Shown here: one piece after another, positions 2,932 to 30,800 of the stretch | How the letters are laid out: each line of letters starts with the position of its first letter | Numbering within the stretch: position 1 is the stretch's first letter | The notes under the pieces: generated by a model | What the model was told of the DNA's origin: nothing | Databases searched by the model: none | What the model saw: only the letters and a program-made list of their open reading frames with translations | From: a virus | Taxonomy: Duplodnaviria; Caudoviricetes | Strand: one strand, 5' to 3' | IMG/VR virus record: IMGVR_UViG_3300011435_000021 | Coordinates: 1 to 44,766 of that record | DNA length: 44,766 bases | Translations under genes and position numbers: made by a program

Positions 2932-3812
2932 AACAGACATACCTCGACATCCCGCTTCGCGGCTCGACGCTCGAAGTGATCAAGACGGTCAACGCGATCG
3001 GCGCGAGATACGCGAAGCAGAACCTCACGATGACGGTGCGCCAGGTGTTCTATCGCCTCGTGACGGTCAACGCGATCGCGAACACGCAGAAGGAATACAA
3101 GCGGCTCGTGAAGATCATCACGGACGGCAGGCTCGCCGGCCTGATCGATTGGGACATGATCGAGGACCGGGCGCGCAGCTTCATCGGGCGCACTCGATGG
3201 GAGTCAGGCGTCCATGTCATGAACGCCGCCGCCGACAACTATCATCGCGATATGTGGGAGGGACAGGACTGCAGGCCGTTCGTGCTGATCGAGAAGCAGG
3301 CGCTCGCTGGCGTGCTCTCGCCGCTGTGCTACAGGTACGACGTGCCGCTGCTCGCCTGCAAGGGCTATCCGAGCGCGTCAGTGCTGCGCGACTTCGCTCG
3401 CGAGCAGATCATGCCGGCGCTCGCGGACGGCCAGCGGTGCATGATCCTGCATCTCGGCGACCACGATCCGAGCGGCATCGACATGACGCGCGACATCGTC
3501 GAGCGCATGACGATGTTCATTGAGATCGAGGACGCGGACGTGAACCGGCTCGCGCTCAACATGCCGCAGGTCGAGCGCATGTCGCTCAAGCCGAACCCGG
3601 CCAAGCAGTCAGACGCCAGGTTCGAGAGATACGTTCGACGATTCGGTCGACGCTGCTACGAGCTTGACGCGATCGAGCCGGAGGATTTACAGGCGCTGGT
3701 TCAGCGTTCGATCGTGGCGCGCATCGACCAGTCCATCTGGAAGCGCCGCGAGCGAGAGATCGAGGCGATGAAAAAGAAAATGAGAAAGCACGCGGCCAAG
3801 TTCAAAGGCTGA
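2928..3812 (+). CDS. Topoisomerase VI subunit A / Spo11-like protein (winged helix + TOPRIM; Mini-A type)
   Basis: TVRQVFYRL (putative catalytic Tyr), IEKQAL (TOPRIM Glu), KGYPS, LGDHDPSG (DxD), YELDAI. Confidence 0.8.
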   Translation: MKQTYLDIPLRGSTLEVIKTVNAIGARYAKQNLTMTVRQVFYRLVTVNAIANTQKEYKRLVKIITDGRLAGLIDWDMIEDRARSFIGRTRWESGVHVMNAAADNYHRDMWEGQDCRPFVLIEKQALAGVLSPLCYRYDVPLLACKGYPSASVLRDFAREQIMPALADGQRCMILHLGDHDPSGIDMTRDIVERMTMFIEIEDADVNRLALNMPQVERMSLKPNPAKQSDARFERYVRRFGRRCYELDAIEPEDLQALVQRSIVARIDQSIWKRREREIEAMKKKMRKHAAKFKG

Positions 3813-3847
3813 TCAGGAGAGTTCCAACATGACTCAGGGGTCATCAC

Positions 3848-4117
3848 ATGGCAACGAAAGACAATCCAGGCGCATTTGACTGCTACGCGAACGCGAAGAA
3901 CGACGAGCCGATGTTCGTGCTGCTTGCGCGCGACAAGGCATCGCCGGCTGCGGTTCGCTACTGGTGCTTAGAGCGCATCAAGACCGGGAAGAATTCGATC
4001 AGCGATCCGCAGATCACCGAGGCGTATCAGTGCGCGACGGCGATGGAGGAGTACCAGGCCAAGCTCGCAGCGCCTAAGCCTGTCGAGGAACCGAAGCCGA
4101 CCGTCGACACGCTGTAG
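3848..4117 (+). CDS. Conserved phage hypothetical protein
   Basis: DCYANA..DEPMFVLLARD..A..VRYW motif recurrent in phages; GC-rich third codon positions. Confidence 0.75.
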   Translation: MATKDNPGAFDCYANAKNDEPMFVLLARDKASPAAVRYWCLERIKTGKNSISDPQITEAYQCATAMEEYQAKLAAPKPVEEPKPTVDTL

Positions 4118-4123
4118 ATCGGC

Positions 4124-6853
4124 GTGATCGACTTTCAGAGCCTCGCTTCGAGGCTGCTGTCACAGGCGCGTTCGCTGCTGCCGTCGTGGTTCCCGGCAGG
4201 GAAGATGCACGGACACGAGTTCTGCGTCGGCGATCTCGCCGGCTCGGAAGGCGAGTCGCTGAAGATCAACGTCGTCACTGGCCGCTGGCAGGACTTCTCG
4301 ACCGGCGACAAGGGCGGCGACCTGATCAGCCTGTACGCGGCGATGCACGGCATCAAGCAGTCCGAGGCCGTCAAGCAGCTTGACGACGGCACGACCTCGC
4401 CGCGCGTAGCGCCAGCGCAGAGTAAGCCAGCGGAGCCGGAGCGCGCCGAGTGGACGCCGGTCATCCCGGTCCCTGCCGACGCTCCTGCGCCGCCTGACGA
4501 GTTCTACCGGAAGATGGCCGGCGAGTGGACGAAGCTCGTCGTGCGCGCTCGCTGGACGTACACGAACGCAGCCGGCGAGCCGGTCGGCCACGTCTGCCGG
4601 TTCGAGTGGTACGACCCTCGCGGCGAGCTTGCTAAGGACGTGATCCCGCAGGTCTACTGCCGCAACGCTGACGGACAGCATCAGTGGCGCTGGCGCGCGT
4701 TCGCGCAGCCGAGGCCGCTCTACAACCTGAAGGAACTGCGCGATCGCCCTGACGCTCCTGTGATGGTCGTCGAGGGTGAGAAGAAAGTCGAGGCGATCCG
4801 CAAGCTCGCGCCGCAATACGTTGGCATCGCATGGCAGGGCGGCGCGAAGGCGTGGCGTAAATCAGACTGGTCGCCGATCAACGGTCGCAAGGTTCTGCTG
4901 TGGCCGGACGCTGATCAGAAAACGGTCAAGACCGAGCGCGAGGCGTCGATCTACAAGACTCCGATCGGCGAGCTTATACCGCAGAACCAGCAGCCAGGCG
5001 TGCTGGCGATGTGGGAGATCGGGCATCACGTCTATAGCAAATGCCCGGAAGTGAAGATCATTCTGCCAGCGGGTAAGCCGGACGGATGGGACGCCGCCGA
5101 CGCGCTCGCTGATGGCATGGATTGGGCGGCGCTCAAGGAATGGGCGCTGCCTCTTGTTCAACAAATAACGGGAGCCACTGATGGACGACAACAAAGCAGT
5201 TCCGGAGTTTCTACGCAACAGGCCGCAGGACGTACCGTTCACGGACGAGCACGCGAAGCAGATGATCGGAAAGGTGAAGCGAGCGCCGATGCTGACGCGC
5301 CTGGCGACGTGGCTGAGAGGCGCGCTCAACGTGCAGCCGGCGAGGATGCAGAGCGCGGTGAACATGGCGATCATCAAGATGGCGAGGGAGGACAGGGCGC
5401 TGATCAACGGCCTGCGCGCGGACCTCAAAGCGACGCAGGATCAGGTGTCGAGGTACGCGATGACGAATCTCGATCTGCAGGGCGAGATCATGCGGATCGA
5501 GCACTATCTCGAACTGACGCGGCGCGGCCTGGGTCAGCGCAACGCGAGGGGTCACGAGCACTACGAGCTAGTGCCGATCGAGAAGCACTTACGCCGGCAA
5601 CCTCGCAAGGGTGGGCGAACCGCTGGCTCGCGCTGAGTCTCGATCGCACAGGCAACGGAGCGCCATTCATGAACCTCACGAACGCGATGCGTGTGCTGAT
5701 GGGCGAGCCATCGATGCACAGCAGGGTCTGGTACGACGAATTCCTCGACCGTCAGATGACTGGTGAGCCGCCGCGCGAGTGGACGGACGATGATGACCTG
5801 CAGGTTCAGCTATTCATGCAGGCTGAGATCGGCCTCTCAAAGATCGGGATGGACGCCGTTCGTGGCGCTGTCCGGATGTTCGCCAAGCAGAACGCTCGCA
5901 ACTGCGTGCGTGACTGGCTGGACACGCTGACGTGGGACGAGCAGCCTCGCATCGATCAGTTCTTCGTCGACGTGTTCGGCGCGGAGGACAACGAATACAC
6001 GCGCGCAGCCGGTCGCAACTTCTGGATCAGCATCGCGGCGAGAGCCTACGATCCAGGCTGCAAGGTCGACAATATGATCGTGCTCGAAGGCGCTCAGGGA
6101 CTCGGCAAAAGCATGGCGCTGCGGATCATCGGCGGAGACTGGTTCGCCGAGCAGCACGAGTCAGCGGCGAACGCAAAGGCGTTCTCGGAGATTCTGAAGG
6201 GCAAGCTGCTGATCGAGATCGCGGAGATGGATGCGTTCAACAGGACCGAGGTCAACACGATCAAAAAGGTCGTCTCGTGCCAGTTCGACCGATACCGCAA
6301 GGCATACGATCGCGAGGCGCGCGATCACCAGCGCCAGTGCGTGCTGGTCGGCACGACCAACAAAGACGACTGGAACCGCGACGAGACAGGCGCACGGCGC
6401 TTCTGGCCGATCCGCTGCGCCGGGCTGGTGCGGATCGACCTAGTGCGCGAGAACCGCGCTGCGCTGTTTGCCGAGGCCGTGGCAGAGTTCAAAGCGGGGT
6501 CGACATGGTGGGAGATGCCGAGCGCGAGCACGCTCAGGGAGCAGAGCGCCAGGTTCGACAATGATCCCTGGCTCAGCGCGATCGAGTCGTTCCTGTCCAT
6601 CGCACGAGAGACGCACATGAACGAGATACTAATCGGATGCCTGAAGTTCGAGCTTCAAAAAGTTGGACGGCAGGAACATAATCGCGTTGCATCATGTCTG
6701 CGTAAACTCGGATGGACGAAAGGCGGCAACGCTCGTCGCAACGGTAGCCAGGTGAGATTGTGGCTCCCGCCGTCGACTGATGCTACCGTAGCAGCAAACG
6801 TCGGACGTAGCAGCGACCCGAAGCAGCAGGAAGAACCGAATCCATTTCAATGA
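4124..6853 (+). CDS. Primase (TOPRIM) fused to VapE-type helicase/ATPase
   Basis: N-terminal W.DF..GDKGGDLISL domain; TOPRIM VVEGEK, WPDAD, GWDAAD; C-terminal LEGAQGLGKS (Walker A), EIAEM, GTTN, TGARRFWP. Confidence 0.9.
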   Translation: MIDFQSLASRLLSQARSLLPSWFPAGKMHGHEFCVGDLAGSEGESLKINVVTGRWQDFSTGDKGGDLISLYAAMHGIKQSEAVKQLDDGTTSPRVAPAQSKPAEPERAEWTPVIPVPADAPAPPDEFYRKMAGEWTKLVVRARWTYTNAAGEPVGHVCRFEWYDPRGELAKDVIPQVYCRNADGQHQWRWRAFAQPRPLYNLKELRDRPDAPVMVVEGEKKVEAIRKLAPQYVGIAWQGGAKAWRKSDWSPINGRKVLLWPDADQKTVKTEREASIYKTPIGELIPQNQQPGVLAMWEIGHHVYSKCPEVKIILPAGKPDGWDAADALADGMDWAALKEWALPLVQQITGATDGRQQSSSGVSTQQAAGRTVHGRAREADDRKGEASADADAPGDVAERRAQRAAGEDAERGEHGDHQDGEGGQGADQRPARGPQSDAGSGVEVRDDESRSAGRDHADRALSRTDAARPGSAQREGSRALRASADREALTPATSQGWANRWLALSLDRTGNGAPFMNLTNAMRVLMGEPSMHSRVWYDEFLDRQMTGEPPREWTDDDDLQVQLFMQAEIGLSKIGMDAVRGAVRMFAKQNARNCVRDWLDTLTWDEQPRIDQFFVDVFGAEDNEYTRAAGRNFWISIAARAYDPGCKVDNMIVLEGAQGLGKSMALRIIGGDWFAEQHESAANAKAFSEILKGKLLIEIAEMDAFNRTEVNTIKKVVSCQFDRYRKAYDREARDHQRQCVLVGTTNKDDWNRDETGARRFWPIRCAGLVRIDLVRENRAALFAEAVAEFKAGSTWWEMPSASTLREQSARFDNDPWLSAIESFLSIARETHMNEILIGCLKFELQKVGRQEHNRVASCLRKLGWTKGGNARRNGSQVRLWLPPSTDATVAANVGRSSDPKQQEEPNPFQ
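5181..5636 (+). CDS. Putative overprinted gene (151 aa, coiled-coil-like) nested in +1 frame of the primase-helicase linker
   Basis: GGAG SD upstream of ATG; GC-rich third positions in this frame; host frame here reads as low-complexity off-frame-like text. Confidence 0.65.
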   Translation: MDDNKAVPEFLRNRPQDVPFTDEHAKQMIGKVKRAPMLTRLATWLRGALNVQPARMQSAVNMAIIKMAREDRALINGLRADLKATQDQVSRYAMTNLDLQGEIMRIEHYLELTRRGLGQRNARGHEHYELVPIEKHLRRQPRKGGRTAGSR

Positions 6854-7025
6854 GTTGCGCCATCTGCTGCGTCTGCTGCTACCTATTCTTATATATAAAG
6901 ACTACTGTAGTAGGAGGAGGGGAGGGATGCACGAGAGCGCACACGGCGGCGCGCGTGCGCGTGCGCGCGAGGCGTGCGGAGACTCTTAGGAAATCGACGC
7001 AGCAGACGCAGCAGCGCAGCAGCGG
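6780..7025. other. Putative replication origin: iteron-like repeats around an AT-rich core
   Basis: CGTAGCAGC at 6787 and 6806; 16-bp inverted repeat 6864-6879 / 6999-7014; TTATATATAA palindrome 6889-6898; directly after primase-helicase gene. Confidence 0.6.
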
Positions 7026-7067
7026 CCTGTTATGTGGCCTGGCGCACATCGGGGTAGGATTGCGACC

Positions 7068-7628
7068 GTGAGCACGACATCAGAGACCACGGCGCGCACG
7101 CGAGACGCGATCGCTGCGCCTGGCGCGATCGACGCAGTGTGCGCTTACATCACAGGCGGAGGGACGCTCGCGGCCTGGTGTCGCGGCCACGAGTTCGAGG
7201 ATCGCGGCAGCTACGTGTTCGAGCTTGTGGCGGCGTGGATCGAGGCCGATGGAGCGCGCCGAAAACGCTACAAGGACGCGCTCGAAGTCCGCGCGCAGCA
7301 TCACAAGGATCGCATCATCGAGCAGCTTGTCGGGATGGTCACTGCCGATCTCACGACTGCGTTCGCGGCGGACGGCACGCTGCTGCCGATCGACCAGATA
7401 CCGCTTGGCGTGCGCCACTGGATCGCCGGCATCGAGGTCGATGAACTGTGGTCAGGCAAGGGTGAGAACCGCGAGCAGATCGGCGTCGTGAAGAAAGTGA
7501 AGTTTTGGGATAAGGTCCGCTCGACAGAACTACTGATGAAGAATCTCAAGATGCTCGTCGAGAGGCACGAGGTCGCCGGCTTGAACCTGGCGGACCTGCT
7601 CGCTGGTGATGAAGGAAAACGATCGTGA
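7068..7628 (+). CDS. terS: Terminase small subunit
   Basis: N-terminal HTH-like region and KVKFWDKVRSTELLMKNLKML motif; upstream of terL. GTG start inferred. Confidence 0.75.
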   Translation: MSTTSETTARTRDAIAAPGAIDAVCAYITGGGTLAAWCRGHEFEDRGSYVFELVAAWIEADGARRKRYKDALEVRAQHHKDRIIEQLVGMVTADLTTAFAADGTLLPIDQIPLGVRHWIAGIEVDELWSGKGENREQIGVVKKVKFWDKVRSTELLMKNLKMLVERHEVAGLNLADLLAGDEGKRS

Positions 7629-11342: not shown

Positions 11343-13093
11343 TGGCCGGCGCTCGATTCACGCCTTACAAGTCTCCGAACAGCGGCGTCACGCGCCGCCA
11401 GCGGTACGAGATCGCGCGCAATTCGATGTGGCAGGAGCGCGTGACGCACGACGCGCACTTCCGAGACCTGGCCGACTTCATCTGTCCGCGCCGGCCTCGG
11501 TTCTTCTCCTCGGACCGCAATCGTGGCGATCGCCGCAACCAGAAGATCATCGACTCGACCGCGACGTTCGCCAGGCGCACGCTGCAGTCGGGTATGCACT
11601 CCGGCATGACTAGTCCTGCGCGTCCGTGGATGAAGCTGATGACGCCGGATCCCGACCTCAACGAGTTCGCAGCCGTGAAGGAATGGCTGCACATCGTCAC
11701 GCAGCGCATGCTGTCGATCTTCGCGCAGTGCAATATCTACAACGCGCTGCCTACGCACTACGGCGACATGGCGACGTTCGGGACGGCTGCGACCGCGATC
11801 CTCGATGACGATGTCGACCTGTTCCGCGCCTACAACTATCCGATCGGCAGCTACGCGATCGCGACGAACAAGCGCGGCCTCGTGGATCAGTGGGTCTACG
11901 AGTCGCAGAGAACCGTGCTTGAGATCGTCGACGAGTTCCTGGTCGACAAGCGCACGAACATGATCGACTGGTCGAAGGCGTCGCAGACGATCCGCAACCT
12001 GTGGGATCGCGCGGAGTACAACCAGAAGATCGACGTGTGCTGGCTGATCATGCCGAACATCGAGCGCGATCGCTCGTCGCTCGAAGCCGGCAAGTTCATG
12101 CCCTACCAGTCGGTTCACATCGAGAAGGGCCAGGAGAAGGAAGATACGTTCCTGCGCGTCAAGGGATTCAACGAGTTCCCGATCCTCGTGTCGCGATGGG
12201 ACGTGACTGCCGACGACTGGTGGGGAACGGACTGTCCCGGCATGGTCGCGCTCGGCGACGTGAAGCAACTGCAGACTGGTGAGAAGCGCAGCGCGCAAGC
12301 GGTCGAGAAGATGCTTAACCCTCCGCTGCAGGCTCCGGTGCATGTGCGGAACCAGAAGGCGTCGCTGCTGCCTGGTGACATCACGTACACGGACGTTCGC
12401 GAGGGACAGAAGGGCATCCATCCGATTCACGAGATGAACTTCGCGATCGACCAGCACGAACTCAAGCAGCAGTCGACGCGCGCTCGCGTCCAGCGCGCCT
12501 GGTACGAGGACTTGTTTCTGATGCTCGCGTACAGCGACCAGTCGCGCGGAGTGCAGCCGCCGACCGCTACCGAGATCGCCGAGCGCCACGAGGAGAAGCT
12601 GATCGCCATCGGCCCGGTGCTTGAGCGCACGAACGACGAACTGCTCGATCCGAAGGTCGATCGCGTGTTCGCGATGGCCGAGCGCAGCGGCCTGCTGCCG
12701 CCAGCGCCTGAAGAACTGCGCGGCGTCGCGCTGCGCGTCGAGTACACGAGCATCATGAGCCAGGCGCAGAAGATGATCGGCGTCGTGGCGCACGAGCGGT
12801 TCCTGCAGACGGCGACCGCGCTGATGACCGTGTTCCCGCAGGTCAAGCACAAGGTCAACGTGTTCCAGGCGATCGACGACGCAGCCGACATGCTCGGCGT
12901 GAACCCGAACCTCGTCGTGCCGGACGAGGAAGCGCATGCCGGCGCGAAGGCCGAGGCCGATGCGATCAACGCTCAGGTCGCATCCGAGAGCGCGGCGAAC
13001 ATGGCGAAGGCCGGGCGCGACCTGGCCGGCGCTGACCTCGAAGGTAAGAACCTGCTGTCGACGCTGGTCGACGGCGTCGAGGAGACGGCATGA
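11342..13093 (+). CDS. Portal (head-tail connector) protein
   Basis: 583 aa; DSTA..SGMTSPARPW, FGTA, PPLQ, TATEIAERHEEK..LGPVLER-like motifs of T7 gp8-type portals. Confidence 0.93.
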   Translation: MAGARFTPYKSPNSGVTRRQRYEIARNSMWQERVTHDAHFRDLADFICPRRPRFFSSDRNRGDRRNQKIIDSTATFARRTLQSGMHSGMTSPARPWMKLMTPDPDLNEFAAVKEWLHIVTQRMLSIFAQCNIYNALPTHYGDMATFGTAATAILDDDVDLFRAYNYPIGSYAIATNKRGLVDQWVYESQRTVLEIVDEFLVDKRTNMIDWSKASQTIRNLWDRAEYNQKIDVCWLIMPNIERDRSSLEAGKFMPYQSVHIEKGQEKEDTFLRVKGFNEFPILVSRWDVTADDWWGTDCPGMVALGDVKQLQTGEKRSAQAVEKMLNPPLQAPVHVRNQKASLLPGDITYTDVREGQKGIHPIHEMNFAIDQHELKQQSTRARVQRAWYEDLFLMLAYSDQSRGVQPPTATEIAERHEEKLIAIGPVLERTNDELLDPKVDRVFAMAERSGLLPPAPEELRGVALRVEYTSIMSQAQKMIGVVAHERFLQTATALMTVFPQVKHKVNVFQAIDDAADMLGVNPNLVVPDEEAHAGAKAEADAINAQVASESAANMAKAGRDLAGADLEGKNLLSTLVDGVEETA

Positions 13094-13455
13094 ACGAGCG
13101 CGCCGCAGTGTCGAACGCCGCTGACGTGAAGCAGGTCAAGCACGCCGGGCGCAAGGATCAGGAGCGCCGGCAGCTTGAAATCGCGGCGCTGCGCGAGATT
13201 CTGAAGCTGCCGGCTGGTCGCCTCGTGCTGTGGAACGTGCTGACGCACTGCAAGGTATTCGAGTCGATCTGGCATCCGAGCGCGCTGATTCACGCGAACG
13301 CCGGTCGCCAGGACGTAGGTCACTGGCTGCTGGCCGAGATCGCCGAGGCCGACGAGGACGTGATCGTCCTGATGATGCGAGAGGCAAGGGTCGCGAAGAA
13401 ACGCGACCAGGCCGAACGTGAAGCCGTCCAACAAACCAAAAAGGACACCGCATGA
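13090..13455 (+). CDS. Bbp19-like protein
   Basis: GRLVLW..L...NAGRQDVG..L motif; between portal and scaffold. Confidence 0.75.
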   Translation: MNERAAVSNAADVKQVKHAGRKDQERRQLEIAALREILKLPAGRLVLWNVLTHCKVFESIWHPSALIHANAGRQDVGHWLLAEIAEADEDVIVLMMREARVAKKRDQAEREAVQQTKKDTA

Positions 13456-27800: not shown

Positions 27801-30800
27801 TAAGGCTGGCGGATACGGAGAGCCGTCAGACATTTTCGTCGTGTTCAAGCCGACGCAGATCAAATCCGCTGTCGGCAACCTCGGCACGTTCGACCCGTTG
27901 AGCGCGAGCATCCTGAATCAGCCTGCGTACCACGGATCGCCGCACAACTTCGACAAGTTCTCGACCGATGCGATCGGCACTGGCGAGGGCGCGCAGTCCT
28001 ACGGATGGGGTCTCTACTTCGCCGAGAACGAGGATGTCGCGTCAGGCTATCACTCACGTCTCGCCGGAAATCCGTCGATCATCGAACTGAAGCTAGGCTC
28101 GATGCGGATCGGACAGCACAACGGGCTCAACTACAGCAAGCGCGATAGCGAGAGCGATGTCGAGAACATTCGCGCATCGCTCGCCGAGGATTTGCTAATC
28201 GACGAGACGAAGCTGCTCGCGCACAAGGGCGACATTCAACAGTACGTCCTGAACGTGCTCGATGACAGAATCAAAAACTACTACGACCCTAAGACCGATC
28301 CGCAGATGATCGTCGCGGCGAAGAAACTCTACTCGATGCTGGATCGGCCTGACTCGATCTCGATCAAGCACGAGGAATCGCAGGGCGGCGTCTACAAGGT
28401 CGACATCGACGACAAGGTCGTCGCGCGCATGCTGGATTGGGACGCCAAAATCAGCGCGCAACCTGAAGCTGTGCGGAGTGCTCTTGAACGCATTGTAGCT
28501 GCTGGCAAGTCGGCGGACGCTGAAGGCGCGGCACGTCTTAAGGCTGACGCCGTTGCTGATGTCGGAGATTTGGCGAACGCGATGTTTGTCGGCGGCGCAG
28601 TGGCCGAACACATTTCACGCGATAGCACTGGCGAGCAATTATATGAGGCGATGGTGACTGCTCTGGATGGAGACAATAGGGTCGCGTCGTCGATGCTGTC
28701 CGCTGTTGGGATACCTGGCAACAAATACTCCGACGCCGACAGCAGAACATTGTCGTGGAAAGTTTACGACGCGAAAGGCAATGTTCTAGGGGCGTTCGAC
28801 AATCAAGGTCAGGCAGACAAGCACGCCGCATCTCAGCCGAAGAACATCAAGACAAAAATCGAATACGAAGGCACTCGGAACCTCGTCGTGTTCGACGACA
28901 AGGACGTGACGATCACGCACAAGGATGGCACGCCGGTAACTGCCGAGGAGCGCAAGCAGTATTTCCAGCCGCCCGAACAAGACTCGAAGCGCGGCTCGAT
29001 CACGTTCACGAACGGGCAGAATCGCAAGTTCAAGATCGATCTCCTCGAAGGCGCGGACCTGTCTACGTTCATCCACGAGTCAGGTCACTTCTGGCTCGAA
29101 GTGATGGGCGATCTCGTGCAGGAGCTTCGCGTCGGTCCCGCCGAGAAGTTGAACGAGAAACAGCGCAAGATGGTCGAGGACTACGACGCTCTGCTGAAGT
29201 GGATGGGCGTCGCCAGTCGCGCCGACATCAAGGTCGAGCAGCACGAGCAGTTCGCTCGCGCGATCGAGTCGTACTTCATGGAAGGCAAGTCGCCGAGTCC
29301 GGCGCTGCAAAACCTGTTCGCTCGCGTGCGCTCGTGGATGCTGGCGATCTATCAGTCGCTCTCTAAGCTGAACGTCAGTCTGACGCCGGAAGTGCGCGAA
29401 GTGTTCGACCGGATGCTCGCGAGCGATCAGGAGATCGAGGCCGCGCAAGCCGAGGCGAACGTCGTTCCGCTATTCGCTGACGACAAGACGCTGCTCGAAG
29501 CAGGGTTCACGCCGGAGTTCGTCGCCGCCTACCGCGACAAGGTGCAGAAGGCATCCGACTCGGCGAAGCAGCAGCTAACCGAAAAGGTCATGCGCGCCGT
29601 CACGCGCGAGCGAGAGAAGTGGTGGAAGGAACAGCGAGCCGCCGTCCGCGAGGATGTTGCCGCCGAGGTCAACGCCAGGCAGGAGCAGATCGCGCTGTCG
29701 GTCCTCACGCGCGACGTGATGCCGAACGGCGATCCCCTGCCCTACGACATGCAGCGGATCAAGATGAGCCGCGCCGAGGTCGACGCCATGTACGGCGAGG
29801 CGGCGTGGAAAACCCTGCCGCGCGGCTCTACGGCGACGGACGGCCTGCCACTGCAGGCGGTCGCCGACCTGTTCGGCTACGGCTCCGGCGACGCGCTCGT
29901 GAAGGCGATCCGCCAGGCGAAGCCAGCGAACGCCGTGATCGAGGCCGAGACGGACAGCCGGATGAAGGAAACGCACGGCGACATGCTGGTCGACGGCACG
30001 ATCCACGCCGCCGCGCAGGAGGCCGTGCAGAACGAGGAGCGCATGGCGGTCGTGCAGGCCGAACTGCGGGCGCTGGCGAAGATGCGGGCTGCTGCGGCCC
30101 CTGCCGTGGCTCTGGAACGCAGCCAAGCGAAGCAGGCTAGGTCTCAGGGAGTGCAGGCGCTGCGCGGAGCGGTCCCGCCGCTGGCGGCTGTGCGTCAGAT
30201 GGCGGCGGGCAGGATCGCGCTGACACGTGTCAGCGACCTGACGCCGAACACGTACCTCGTGGCCGCGCGCCGGGCGAGCCAGTCTGCTGTCGAGGCAGCG
30301 GCGAAAGGCGACTACGAGGTAGCTCTCAGCGCGAAGCAGCGCGAGATGATGAACATCGAGTTATTCAAGGCGTCGACGGCAGCGCGCGAGGAGGTCGACA
30401 AGACCGTCGCGTACATGCAAGCGTTCGGTGAAGGAAAGAAACGCGCTCGCATGGCGAAGGCCGGGCAGGACTACCTCGATCAGATCGATGGGTTCCTCGA
30501 TCGCTACGACTTCGCGCAGGTATCACAGAAGGCGCTAGATCGCCGGAAGAACCTTGCCGTATGGGTCGCGCAGAAGGAAGCGGCTGGCGAGCCGGTCAAC
30601 CTGCCGGACGATGTCGTCGTCGAGACTCGGACGAACTACAAGGACATGACGGTCGAGGAACTGCGCGGCGTTCGCGACAGCGTGAAGCACATCGAACATC
30701 TCGCCAAGCTGAAGAACCGTCTGCTGACGGCGAAGAAAAAGGCGACGCTCGACGAGGTCGTCGAGGAGATCGAGACCTCGATCCGCGACAACGCGACGAG

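Follow-up and report, generated by a model that had tools for sequence, protein, structure and literature searches.

The gene Rz1 of phage lambda is a complete gene with its own start, placed wholly inside Rz in the +1 frame; both act in lysis, and the Rz1 product is a lipoprotein. In the record of phage T7, genes 4.1 (11635-11757) and 4.2 (12988-13326) lie within or overlap gene 4A (11565-13265), and their +1 frame can be computed from these coordinates. Gene 4.1, a small out-of-frame ORF, ends at 11757, three bases past 11754, where gene 4B is annotated to begin, and hence at the internal start of the helicase. One paper counts gene 4.2 among genes of low essentiality (PMC11482910). In the IncQ plasmid RSF1010/R1162, mobB is read in another frame inside mobA/repB (PMC2200642). 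In polyomaviruses, the ALTO/middle T open reading frame (ORF) overlaps an intrinsically disordered region of the helicase-containing large T and belongs to one monophyletic lineage (PMC4446436). Here we describe an arrangement of this kind in the virus record IMGVR_UViG_3300011435_000021 (Duplodnaviria; Caudoviricetes), which was analysed over its whole length of 44,766 bp (hereafter, the window). An ORF at 4124-6853 (909 amino acids (aa), GTG start; hereafter, the host ORF) encodes a VapE/D5-like superfamily 3 (SF3) helicase fused to what is probably a DnaG-type primase, and a second ORF at 5181-5636 lies wholly within it in the +1 frame. All features of this locus given below are on the plus strand. 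Our analysis makes it very probable that 5181-5636 is dual-coding, with frame 0 forming an unstructured spacer between primase and helicase, and the +1 frame forming a conserved ORF for a basic, coiled-coil-like protein that is predicted to have its own start and may be a nucleic-acid-binding replication helper.

The nested open reading frame and the frame under constraint

The nested ORF starts with ATG at 5181, comprises 151 codons and ends with TGA at 5634-5636; it is on the same strand as the host ORF and offset from it by one base, as (5181-4124) mod 3 = 1. A first-pass annotation of the window, made from the sequence and a list of its ORFs, had proposed a complete gene at this place, and the ORF list and conservation in six of six lineages agree with it. 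Read in the host frame, codon positions 1, 2 and 3 have a G+C of 0.67/0.47/0.81 over 4124-5180 and 0.61/0.44/0.76 over 5637-6853. Over 5181-5636 it is 0.84/0.64/0.42, which becomes 0.64/0.42/0.84 when read in the nested frame, and this is the normal pattern of this genome. The per-frame values (0.84 nested versus 0.42 host at the third position) confirm that the third positions of the nested frame are G+C-rich, as had been claimed. Among 14 long genes of the window, a sustained switch of phase is found only at 5144-5623.

When 8,000 candidates from a protein search with the host protein were scored, 1,836 were homologues at E<=1e-10, of which the best 120 were examined. In 37 of these 120, the linker between primase and helicase is 90-207 aa long and its composition is dominated by R/G/A/D/E/P/S/Q; in the other 83 it is 8-85 aa long. 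All 37 long-linker homologues, which come from independent assemblies, are uninterrupted single ORFs. DNA of relatives was obtained from scans of IMG/VR, JGI/ENA metagenome contigs and GTDB genomes; the genome-contig scan gave only distant primase relatives without a helicase match. Several loci are copies of each other: the window is L001/L083, L003/L084/L107 are one contig, L086/L087/L110 are identical over the gene, and L085 has a near-identical variant, L108/L118. The contigs of L117 and L119 start within the linker (5' cut), and that of L109/L130 stops 42 nucleotides (nt) past the primase domain and is counted for the start but not for the linker.

Six of six long-linker lineages with linker DNA, namely the window, L084, L085 (with L108), L086, L117 and L119, have a +1 frame that runs through the linker without a stop. 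The open frames are 155, 145, 123 and 236 codons long in linkers of 450, 438, 312 and 699 nt, respectively, and in the cut contigs L117 and L119 the frame is open for 119 and 197 codons up to the stops. The third frame contains 6-11 stops over the nested span. Host-frame G+C at third codon positions (GC3) is 0.38-0.56 in long linkers versus 0.78-0.95 in the flanking domains. Among 46 distinct two-domain loci, the phase switch is present only in the five long-linker loci (four lineages). The longest of these linkers, 699 nt in L086 (also L087 and L110), carries at 4359-5054 a nested protein of 232 aa with about 95 extra N-terminal residues.

The start region of the nested ORF in the window consists of a +1-frame stop (TAA, 5166-5168), a Shine-Dalgarno (SD)-like GGGAG at 5170-5174, a 6-nt spacer and the ATG at 5181, so the GGAG-N6-ATG start of the first-pass annotation is present. 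The same order is seen in five of five lineages in which the start is visible: a +1 stop (TAA/TGA), one base, an SD-like run (AGGGG, GGAGG, GGAGG and AGGAAGGG in the relatives), 3-7 nt and ATG. An overlap of a third-frame stop with the nested ATG (TGATG), to which attention had also been drawn, is present at 5179-5183 but absent from three other complete starts and from L109, and therefore appears to have no meaning. A loose host-frame 'footprint' pattern for the nested start occurs in 27 of the 37 long-linker and 9 of the 83 short-linker proteins, which is only suggestive.

This arrangement also bears on another way of reaching the +1 frame, a programmed +1 frameshift from the primase frame, by which a primase with an alternative coiled-coil C-terminus, ending before the helicase, would be made. 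An SD-like run stimulates frameshifting in prfB, and the run upstream of the ATG could do the same here, where the +1 frame opens only 3-4 codons ahead of the ATG. However, a +1 stop stands just upstream in all five lineages and the shift window is only 9-12 nt; a shared slippery run, in-frame stop or rare codon was not seen in the five start regions. The ATG itself is kept in all five, and gene finders working on short contigs begin the protein at that Met. We consider a frameshift very unlikely, and an internal start at the ATG remains our reading.

The length of an open frame is not the argument by itself, because long off-frame runs occur elsewhere in G+C-rich genes. In the helicase part of these genes, the +2 frame is open for 216-330 codons, and such runs would be expected if the open +1 frame was a compositional by-product of a G+C-rich R/G/A/D linker from which no protein is made. 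When the host codons were shuffled (20,000 trials), the +1 frame remained open in 4.6% of the trials for the window and in 3.1%, 10% (L085) and 0.06% (L086) for relatives, so that in three lineages chance leaves it open in 3-10%. However, an unconstrained linker should hold the high GC3 of the genome, and the observed host GC3 drops to the low values given above; furthermore, the length of the nested ORF follows the size of the linker from 312 to 699 nt. Local alignment of the nested proteins against 300 shuffles gave z values of 12.8, 6.5, 8.4, 9.0, 4.3 and 3.1 for six pairs, whereas the host-frame linker peptides of the same DNA gave 2.1, 0.1, 1.4, -1.0, -0.4 and 0.6. The host-frame linker of the window had been described as Arg/Gly/Ala/Asp-rich text typical of an off-frame translation, and 86% of it is indeed R/G/A/D/E/P/S/Q. 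A hidden Markov model (HMM) built from four lineages matches the held-out +1 frames of L119 (7e-11) and L117 (2.6e-5). The 62 loci L117-L178, translated in six frames, gave it no other match, and in the previously obtained loci its matches were confined to the ORFs from which it had been built. As 26 representatives of the family with invariant residues are also known (see below) and the SD/ATG start is conserved, we regard the compositional explanation as largely refuted.

The pair L085 and L108 shows directly in which frame changes are tolerated. Over the gene they have 10 differences, of which 4 fall within the nested span and 6 in the flanks. In the nested span, three of the four differences are at nested position 3, where they are silent for the nested protein and change the host residue, and the fourth is at position 2. 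In the flanks, five of the six are at host position 3. Taken with the alignments, these comparisons indicate that the nested frame is under purifying selection and that the host peptide is conserved only in staying open.

A nucleic-acid element such as an origin, iterons or a structured RNA could also leave a conserved signal at this place. Some primase-helicase genes hold their own origin, and repA of N15 is an example of a primase-helicase gene with the origin inside. However, no iterons or notable repeats were seen in 4900-5900, conservation tracks the codon positions of the +1 frame, and the signal is recognisable in protein comparisons of sequences with saturated third positions. An element of this type in place of a second protein is hardly credible. 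Judged from conservation, the nested ORF is a genuine gene that is conserved inside another one, with a predicted soluble, basic, coiled-coil-like product of no known family.

The nested protein family and its predicted fold

An exhaustive search of 1.84 billion representatives with a profile from the six lineages gave 28 proteins at E<=0.001, of which two (680 and 795 aa) were dropped as they match over 28-38 residues only. The remaining 26 family representatives are 110-232 aa long; one is identical to the nested protein of L086 and two had been found by an earlier search. Contig records could be found for 26 of 27 small family proteins that were looked up, and 23 of these are on contigs of 556-3,076 nt. 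The other three are on longer contigs of 16.9 kb (L087, the known nested locus), 26.9 kb (P0141) and 8.9 kb (P0144). Such a preponderance of short contigs is expected if the gene is always nested, because gene finders call the nested frame where the host ORF is cut, and otherwise only pipelines that accept overlapping genes would report it. The source name of P0144, 'phosphoglycolate phosphatase-like HAD superfamily hydrolase', is unsupported by its sequence and looks like a mis-annotation.

The signature of the family is LINGLRADLKA in the window (nested residues 74-84, 5400-5432), with G77, R79 and D81 invariant in a 30-row alignment (A6), and the core consensus is LIxGLRxDLxA (invariant G-x-R-x-D). 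Residues M1, P8, I75, L78, A84, E107, R114, Y128 and L130 are at least 90% conserved in the same alignment. Other recognisable parts are an N-terminal proline motif (SGVPGD or IPEFLRK), a helical stretch ending in R-[IL]-E-x-x-L-x-L-x-R, and a C-terminal Y-x-L-x-x-x-P-R-x-x-R-R followed by a basic tail. In the window this tail covers the last 25 residues (5559-5633), with 7 K/R versus 2 D/E, and across relatives the last 25 residues contain 7-10 K/R and 0-2 D/E. The last nested codons overlap host residues S496-W501, which form the conserved start of the helicase domain. Several family members that lack genomic context end in SRAG or SRAGSRGGST...RSRT. In L085, the SRAG-type tail results when the conserved helicase start Q-V-A-R-W-L-S-W-G-L-D-R-N-G-N-G is read in the +1 frame, which hints that the context-free members with such tails may overlap the same host motif.

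AlphaFold2 modelling of the nested protein with a 5-row alignment predicts a long helix over residues 53-116 (5337-5528), with a predicted local distance difference test score (pLDDT) of 85-94 over residues 60-110 approximately, and a further helix over residues 22-48. This prediction accords with the helical, coiled-coil character suggested in the first-pass annotation. Prediction of a complex of two copies of residues 20-135 gave a score of 0.40 against a mark of 0.42, and is evidence neither for nor against a dimer. The isoelectric point (pI) is 10.7 in the window and 10.3-11.7 in eight members of the family, and the maximum 19-residue Kyte-Doolittle mean is 0.57 in the window and 0.51-0.97 over eight members; thus, all are basic and hydrophilic. 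No lipobox or transmembrane segment was found in the nested protein, which does not have the features of an Rz1-type spanin or a membrane peptide.

The same DNA read in the host frame gives a spacer of very different character (residues 351-494, 5174-5605). It has a pI of 5.2, contains 8 hydrophobic residues in 144 versus 43 in 151 in the nested protein, and is modelled by AlphaFold with a pLDDT of 25-29 and no secondary structure, between domains of about 90 on either side. These values, with the comparative evidence, agree with the idea that the nested gene doubles as a disordered spacer of the enzyme.

Searches for relatives of known function gave little. Pfam and PHROG gave no match to the nested protein, tblastn with three family members gave none in 50,697 phage records, and Foldseek against BFVD gave no match at E<=0.001. 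Profile searches of the PDB with the nested family gave weak coiled-coil matches only (best E 0.036 and 0.0061), and the ESM Atlas gave only unnamed clusters (0.90 and 0.77). A word-indexed protein search with the single nested protein found nothing, and its profile version returned these nested ORFs, as annotated on short contigs, and nothing else. An intron or intein was rejected as the nature of the insert; the ORF takes up the whole insert, and no Pfam family, hence no endonuclease domain, was found in the nested protein.

The host gene, its spacer and the proposed mechanism

The host protein is folded on both sides of the spacer. The primase part (residues 1-350, 4124-5173) is modelled with a pLDDT of about 90 except at residues 90-104, and its EGEK and D-x-D columns are invariant in a 22-row alignment (A1) in which the host-frame linker is barely alignable. 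The helicase part (residues 495-909, 5606-6850) has a pLDDT mostly of 80-93 and a Walker A motif GLGKS, whose G-x-G-K-S columns (G656, Q658, G659, K662 and S663) are invariant in A1. The first-pass annotation had noted that VapE-like sequence resumes before the nested stop, and the host residues R-W-L-A-L, including W501 (invariant in A1), are indeed encoded upstream of that stop. In Pfam searches, PF05272 (VapE-like_dom) matches residues 599-805 with 1.8e-69, above its cut-off; TOPRIM was unmatched and DUF6371 was below its own cut-off, and PF01751 is listed for two homologues. PHROG matches of the host protein are to DNA helicase/primase families. With Foldseek, the helicase part of the model matches PriRep1 (7pds, 3e-21), the SaPI5 primase-helicase and poxvirus D5/E5 helicases, and the N-terminal part matches the DnaG primases 2au3, 5vaz and 5w33 (1e-5 to 2e-4).

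It had been envisaged that a stop or an indel separating primase and helicase might be revealed by sequencing reads. Logan contigs from the one sequencing run listed as containing this DNA, possibly its source, show 0 differences and 0 gaps against 4000-7000; it is a DNA run, and no RNA run is listed for the stretch. As the contigs contain no indel, the assembly is sound.

In the reciprocal shuffling, in which the nested codons were permuted, the host frame remained open in 2.9% of the trials for the window, in 31% and 29% for L084 and L085, and in 2.8% for L086. Taking both sets of shuffles jointly with the 37 uninterrupted long-linker ORFs, both frames appear to be kept open. The nested gene could nevertheless be real without any need for reading through it in the host frame, if it was a captured gene and primase and helicase worked equally well apart. 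The values near 30% in two lineages are compatible with this, as is a related phage (L002, 2479-4161; helicase part 52% identical) in which the gene has a 560-aa form without most of the primase part. The spacer of this form is about 40 residues long and is without the nested ORF. However, none of the 37 long-linker homologues is interrupted, and in L086 the host frame is open across 232 nested codons, for which chance gives the 2.8% above. No free-standing nested homologue was found in five related genomes or in the 50,697 phage records. The five related genomes are short-linker phage records, four of them at least 90% complete, and free-standing copies were likewise not found in six-frame translations of the fetched loci, in phage GenBank records or among called proteins.

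A conserved restart of the helicase is also missing. The first-pass annotation had pointed to a possible separate helicase start, and the sequence it named, GGAG (5657-5660)-N8-ATG in the host frame (5657-5671), is present in the window. As a helicase-only start it is not conserved; an SD and a start were found in one of six lineages and a Met in 2 of 22 homologues. Since, in addition, the TGATG overlap is not shared, the primase-only and helicase-only products that had been thought conceivable are not supported and remain speculation. We therefore consider it very improbable that the fusion is dispensable, and prefer the reading in which the spacer is used in both frames.

A quick FastTree tree was calculated from both domains with the linker removed. 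It places 32 of the 37 long-linker proteins in one clade of 34 rows (support 84), with a core of 30 rows (support 100), and five long-linker proteins fall outside it. Two short-linker proteins, P0019 (linker 59 aa) and P0035 (20 aa), are nested within this clade and look like secondary losses of the nested gene. The tree topology fits a single origin at the base of one clade, which would have been followed by later losses. The failure to find a free-standing homologue mildly favours birth in place over capture of an existing gene. The G+C pattern cannot date the two frames, because it reflects the constraint on a frame rather than its age.

In our proposed mechanism, the primase-helicase mRNA would have a separate, independent site of ribosome initiation at the internal SD/ATG. 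A single promoter-like site was found in 3700-7100, at 6654-6682, far downstream of the nested ORF, with none near it, and this region contains no terminators. The full-length primase-spacer-helicase fusion would also be made, because the host frame is uninterrupted in all 37 long-linker homologues, and selection would keep this frame free of stops.

Several points weigh against such a two-protein reading. Both products are predicted from the DNA sequence. Shuffle values of some single lineages are unremarkable (+1 frame open in 0.10 of the trials for L085; host frame open in 0.29-0.31 for L084 and L085). In 81 codon columns that are free of gaps in six lineages, identity exceeds the compositional expectation by 0.22 at the second nested position (0.474 vs 0.251), by 0.11 at the first and by 0.05 at the third, but the alignment was built on the nested proteins and is hence biased toward the nested frame. 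Identity among the nested proteins of different lineages is no more than 23-37%, against 48-69% for the helicase domains of these lineages, and nested and host divergence do not correlate significantly (Spearman 0.41, p 0.12). Among the three family members on longer contigs, the nested setting is established only for the one of 16.9 kb, and the other two could be free-standing. The mean pLDDT of the nested model is 67, with both ends low. Language-model 'recognition' values of 1857 and 1512 are below those of 91% of known families, a measure which does not decide whether a gene is real. Finally, no homology that would indicate a function was found in the Pfam, PHROG, PDB and BFVD searches.

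The charge, helical shape, basic tail and position of the nested protein are the guides to its function. It is possible, and here tentatively suggested, that it acts as an accessory DNA- or RNA-binding factor of the replisome. From the charge, helical shape and position, a host-takeover or anti-defence protein is a less likely role, and a regulator would be an unlikely one. A more specific and rather improbable idea is that the basic nested coiled-coil (pI 10.3-11.7) binds the acidic spacer (pI 5.2) encoded by the same DNA and so sets the coupling or loading of primase and helicase, as a regulator that arose de novo in one clade. If this were true, the regulator would be self-contained inside its own target, in parallel to mobB/mobA and ALTO/large T, and the spacers of multidomain replication enzymes would be nurseries of new genes.

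The host protein carries one more feature of possible relevance to its partners. Its last five codons (6836-6850) read P-N-P-F-Q, and P-F is present among the last six residues in 17 of the 22 homologues of A1, mostly as D-[ILV]-P-F-Q; the tail that precedes it varies and is often acidic. Bacterial single-stranded DNA-binding protein (SSB) has the tip D-D-D-I-P-F, and T7 replication proteins have aromatic C-terminal tips. The C-terminal P-F end of the host protein resembles these tips and may be a motif for docking of partners.

In the surrounding window, which has 62% G+C and is rated complete by CheckV, a crude gene map with PHROG matches places the host ORF in a replication module together with a SNF2-type helicase fragment and a DUF2399/topoisomerase-like gene. 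Packaging, head, tail and lysis genes form a plus-strand block, and RecE/RecT-like recombination genes are in a minus-strand block. An ORF of 2,671 codons at 24799-32814 matches PHROG 9880 (function not assigned). Inside it, at 28459-28638, there is an isolated 180-nt anomaly of codon-position G+C, across which no alternative ORF runs.

Comparison with known nested genes

The principle of overprinting is known, and this locus adds to it a protein family and a host gene that are both new. We found no report of a nested gene in the linker of a phage primase-helicase or of VapE in the literature searched, most subscription journals being outside it. Gene finders forbid a gene that lies wholly inside another on the same strand, and because of this a family of at least 26 clusters has been invisible except on contigs too short for the host gene. 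The locus is an unusually clean case of long dual coding in a double-stranded DNA phage, as it covers 312-699 nt between lineages whose helicase domains differ as much as stated above. The constraint on amino acids lies wholly in the hidden frame, and the annotated frame serves as a tether only. The system is also directly testable, since single-base changes can silence one frame and be synonymous in the other.

Rz1 is a described phage gene with the same geometry; the nested protein here differs from it in having no hydrophobic segment and in being located in a replication gene. Genes 4.1 and 4.2 of T7 are similar in that they are annotated +1 ORFs inside or overlapping a phage primase-helicase gene. 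However, they are labelled hypothetical and, unlike the nested gene of the window, are not located in an interdomain spacer.

The arrangement in RSF1010 is alike in that a small accessory gene sits between the two catalytic parts of a DNA-processing fusion enzyme, and the likeness is one of layout. The enzyme there is a relaxase-primase and not a primase-SF3 helicase. In addition, the downstream domain of the plasmid enzyme is made alone as RepB', whereas a matching helicase-only start is present in only one of six lineages here. The nested protein matched no described family in Pfam, PHROG or PDB profiles, and the comparison with MobB concerns the gene layout.

With ALTO, the nested ORF shares the position of a second ORF over the disordered part of a helicase-containing replication protein, as well as the restriction to one clade. 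ALTO differs in belonging to a eukaryotic virus with spliced mRNAs and in the proteins being unrelated. A further difference is that the large T frame is called ancestral (PMC4446436) and contains functional motifs (LXCXE), whereas the host frame here is without constraint beyond openness. The nested gene of the window thus stands as a phage example beside plasmid mobB and polyomavirus ALTO, and together they suggest that extra genes repeatedly arise or lodge in the disordered linkers of replication enzymes.

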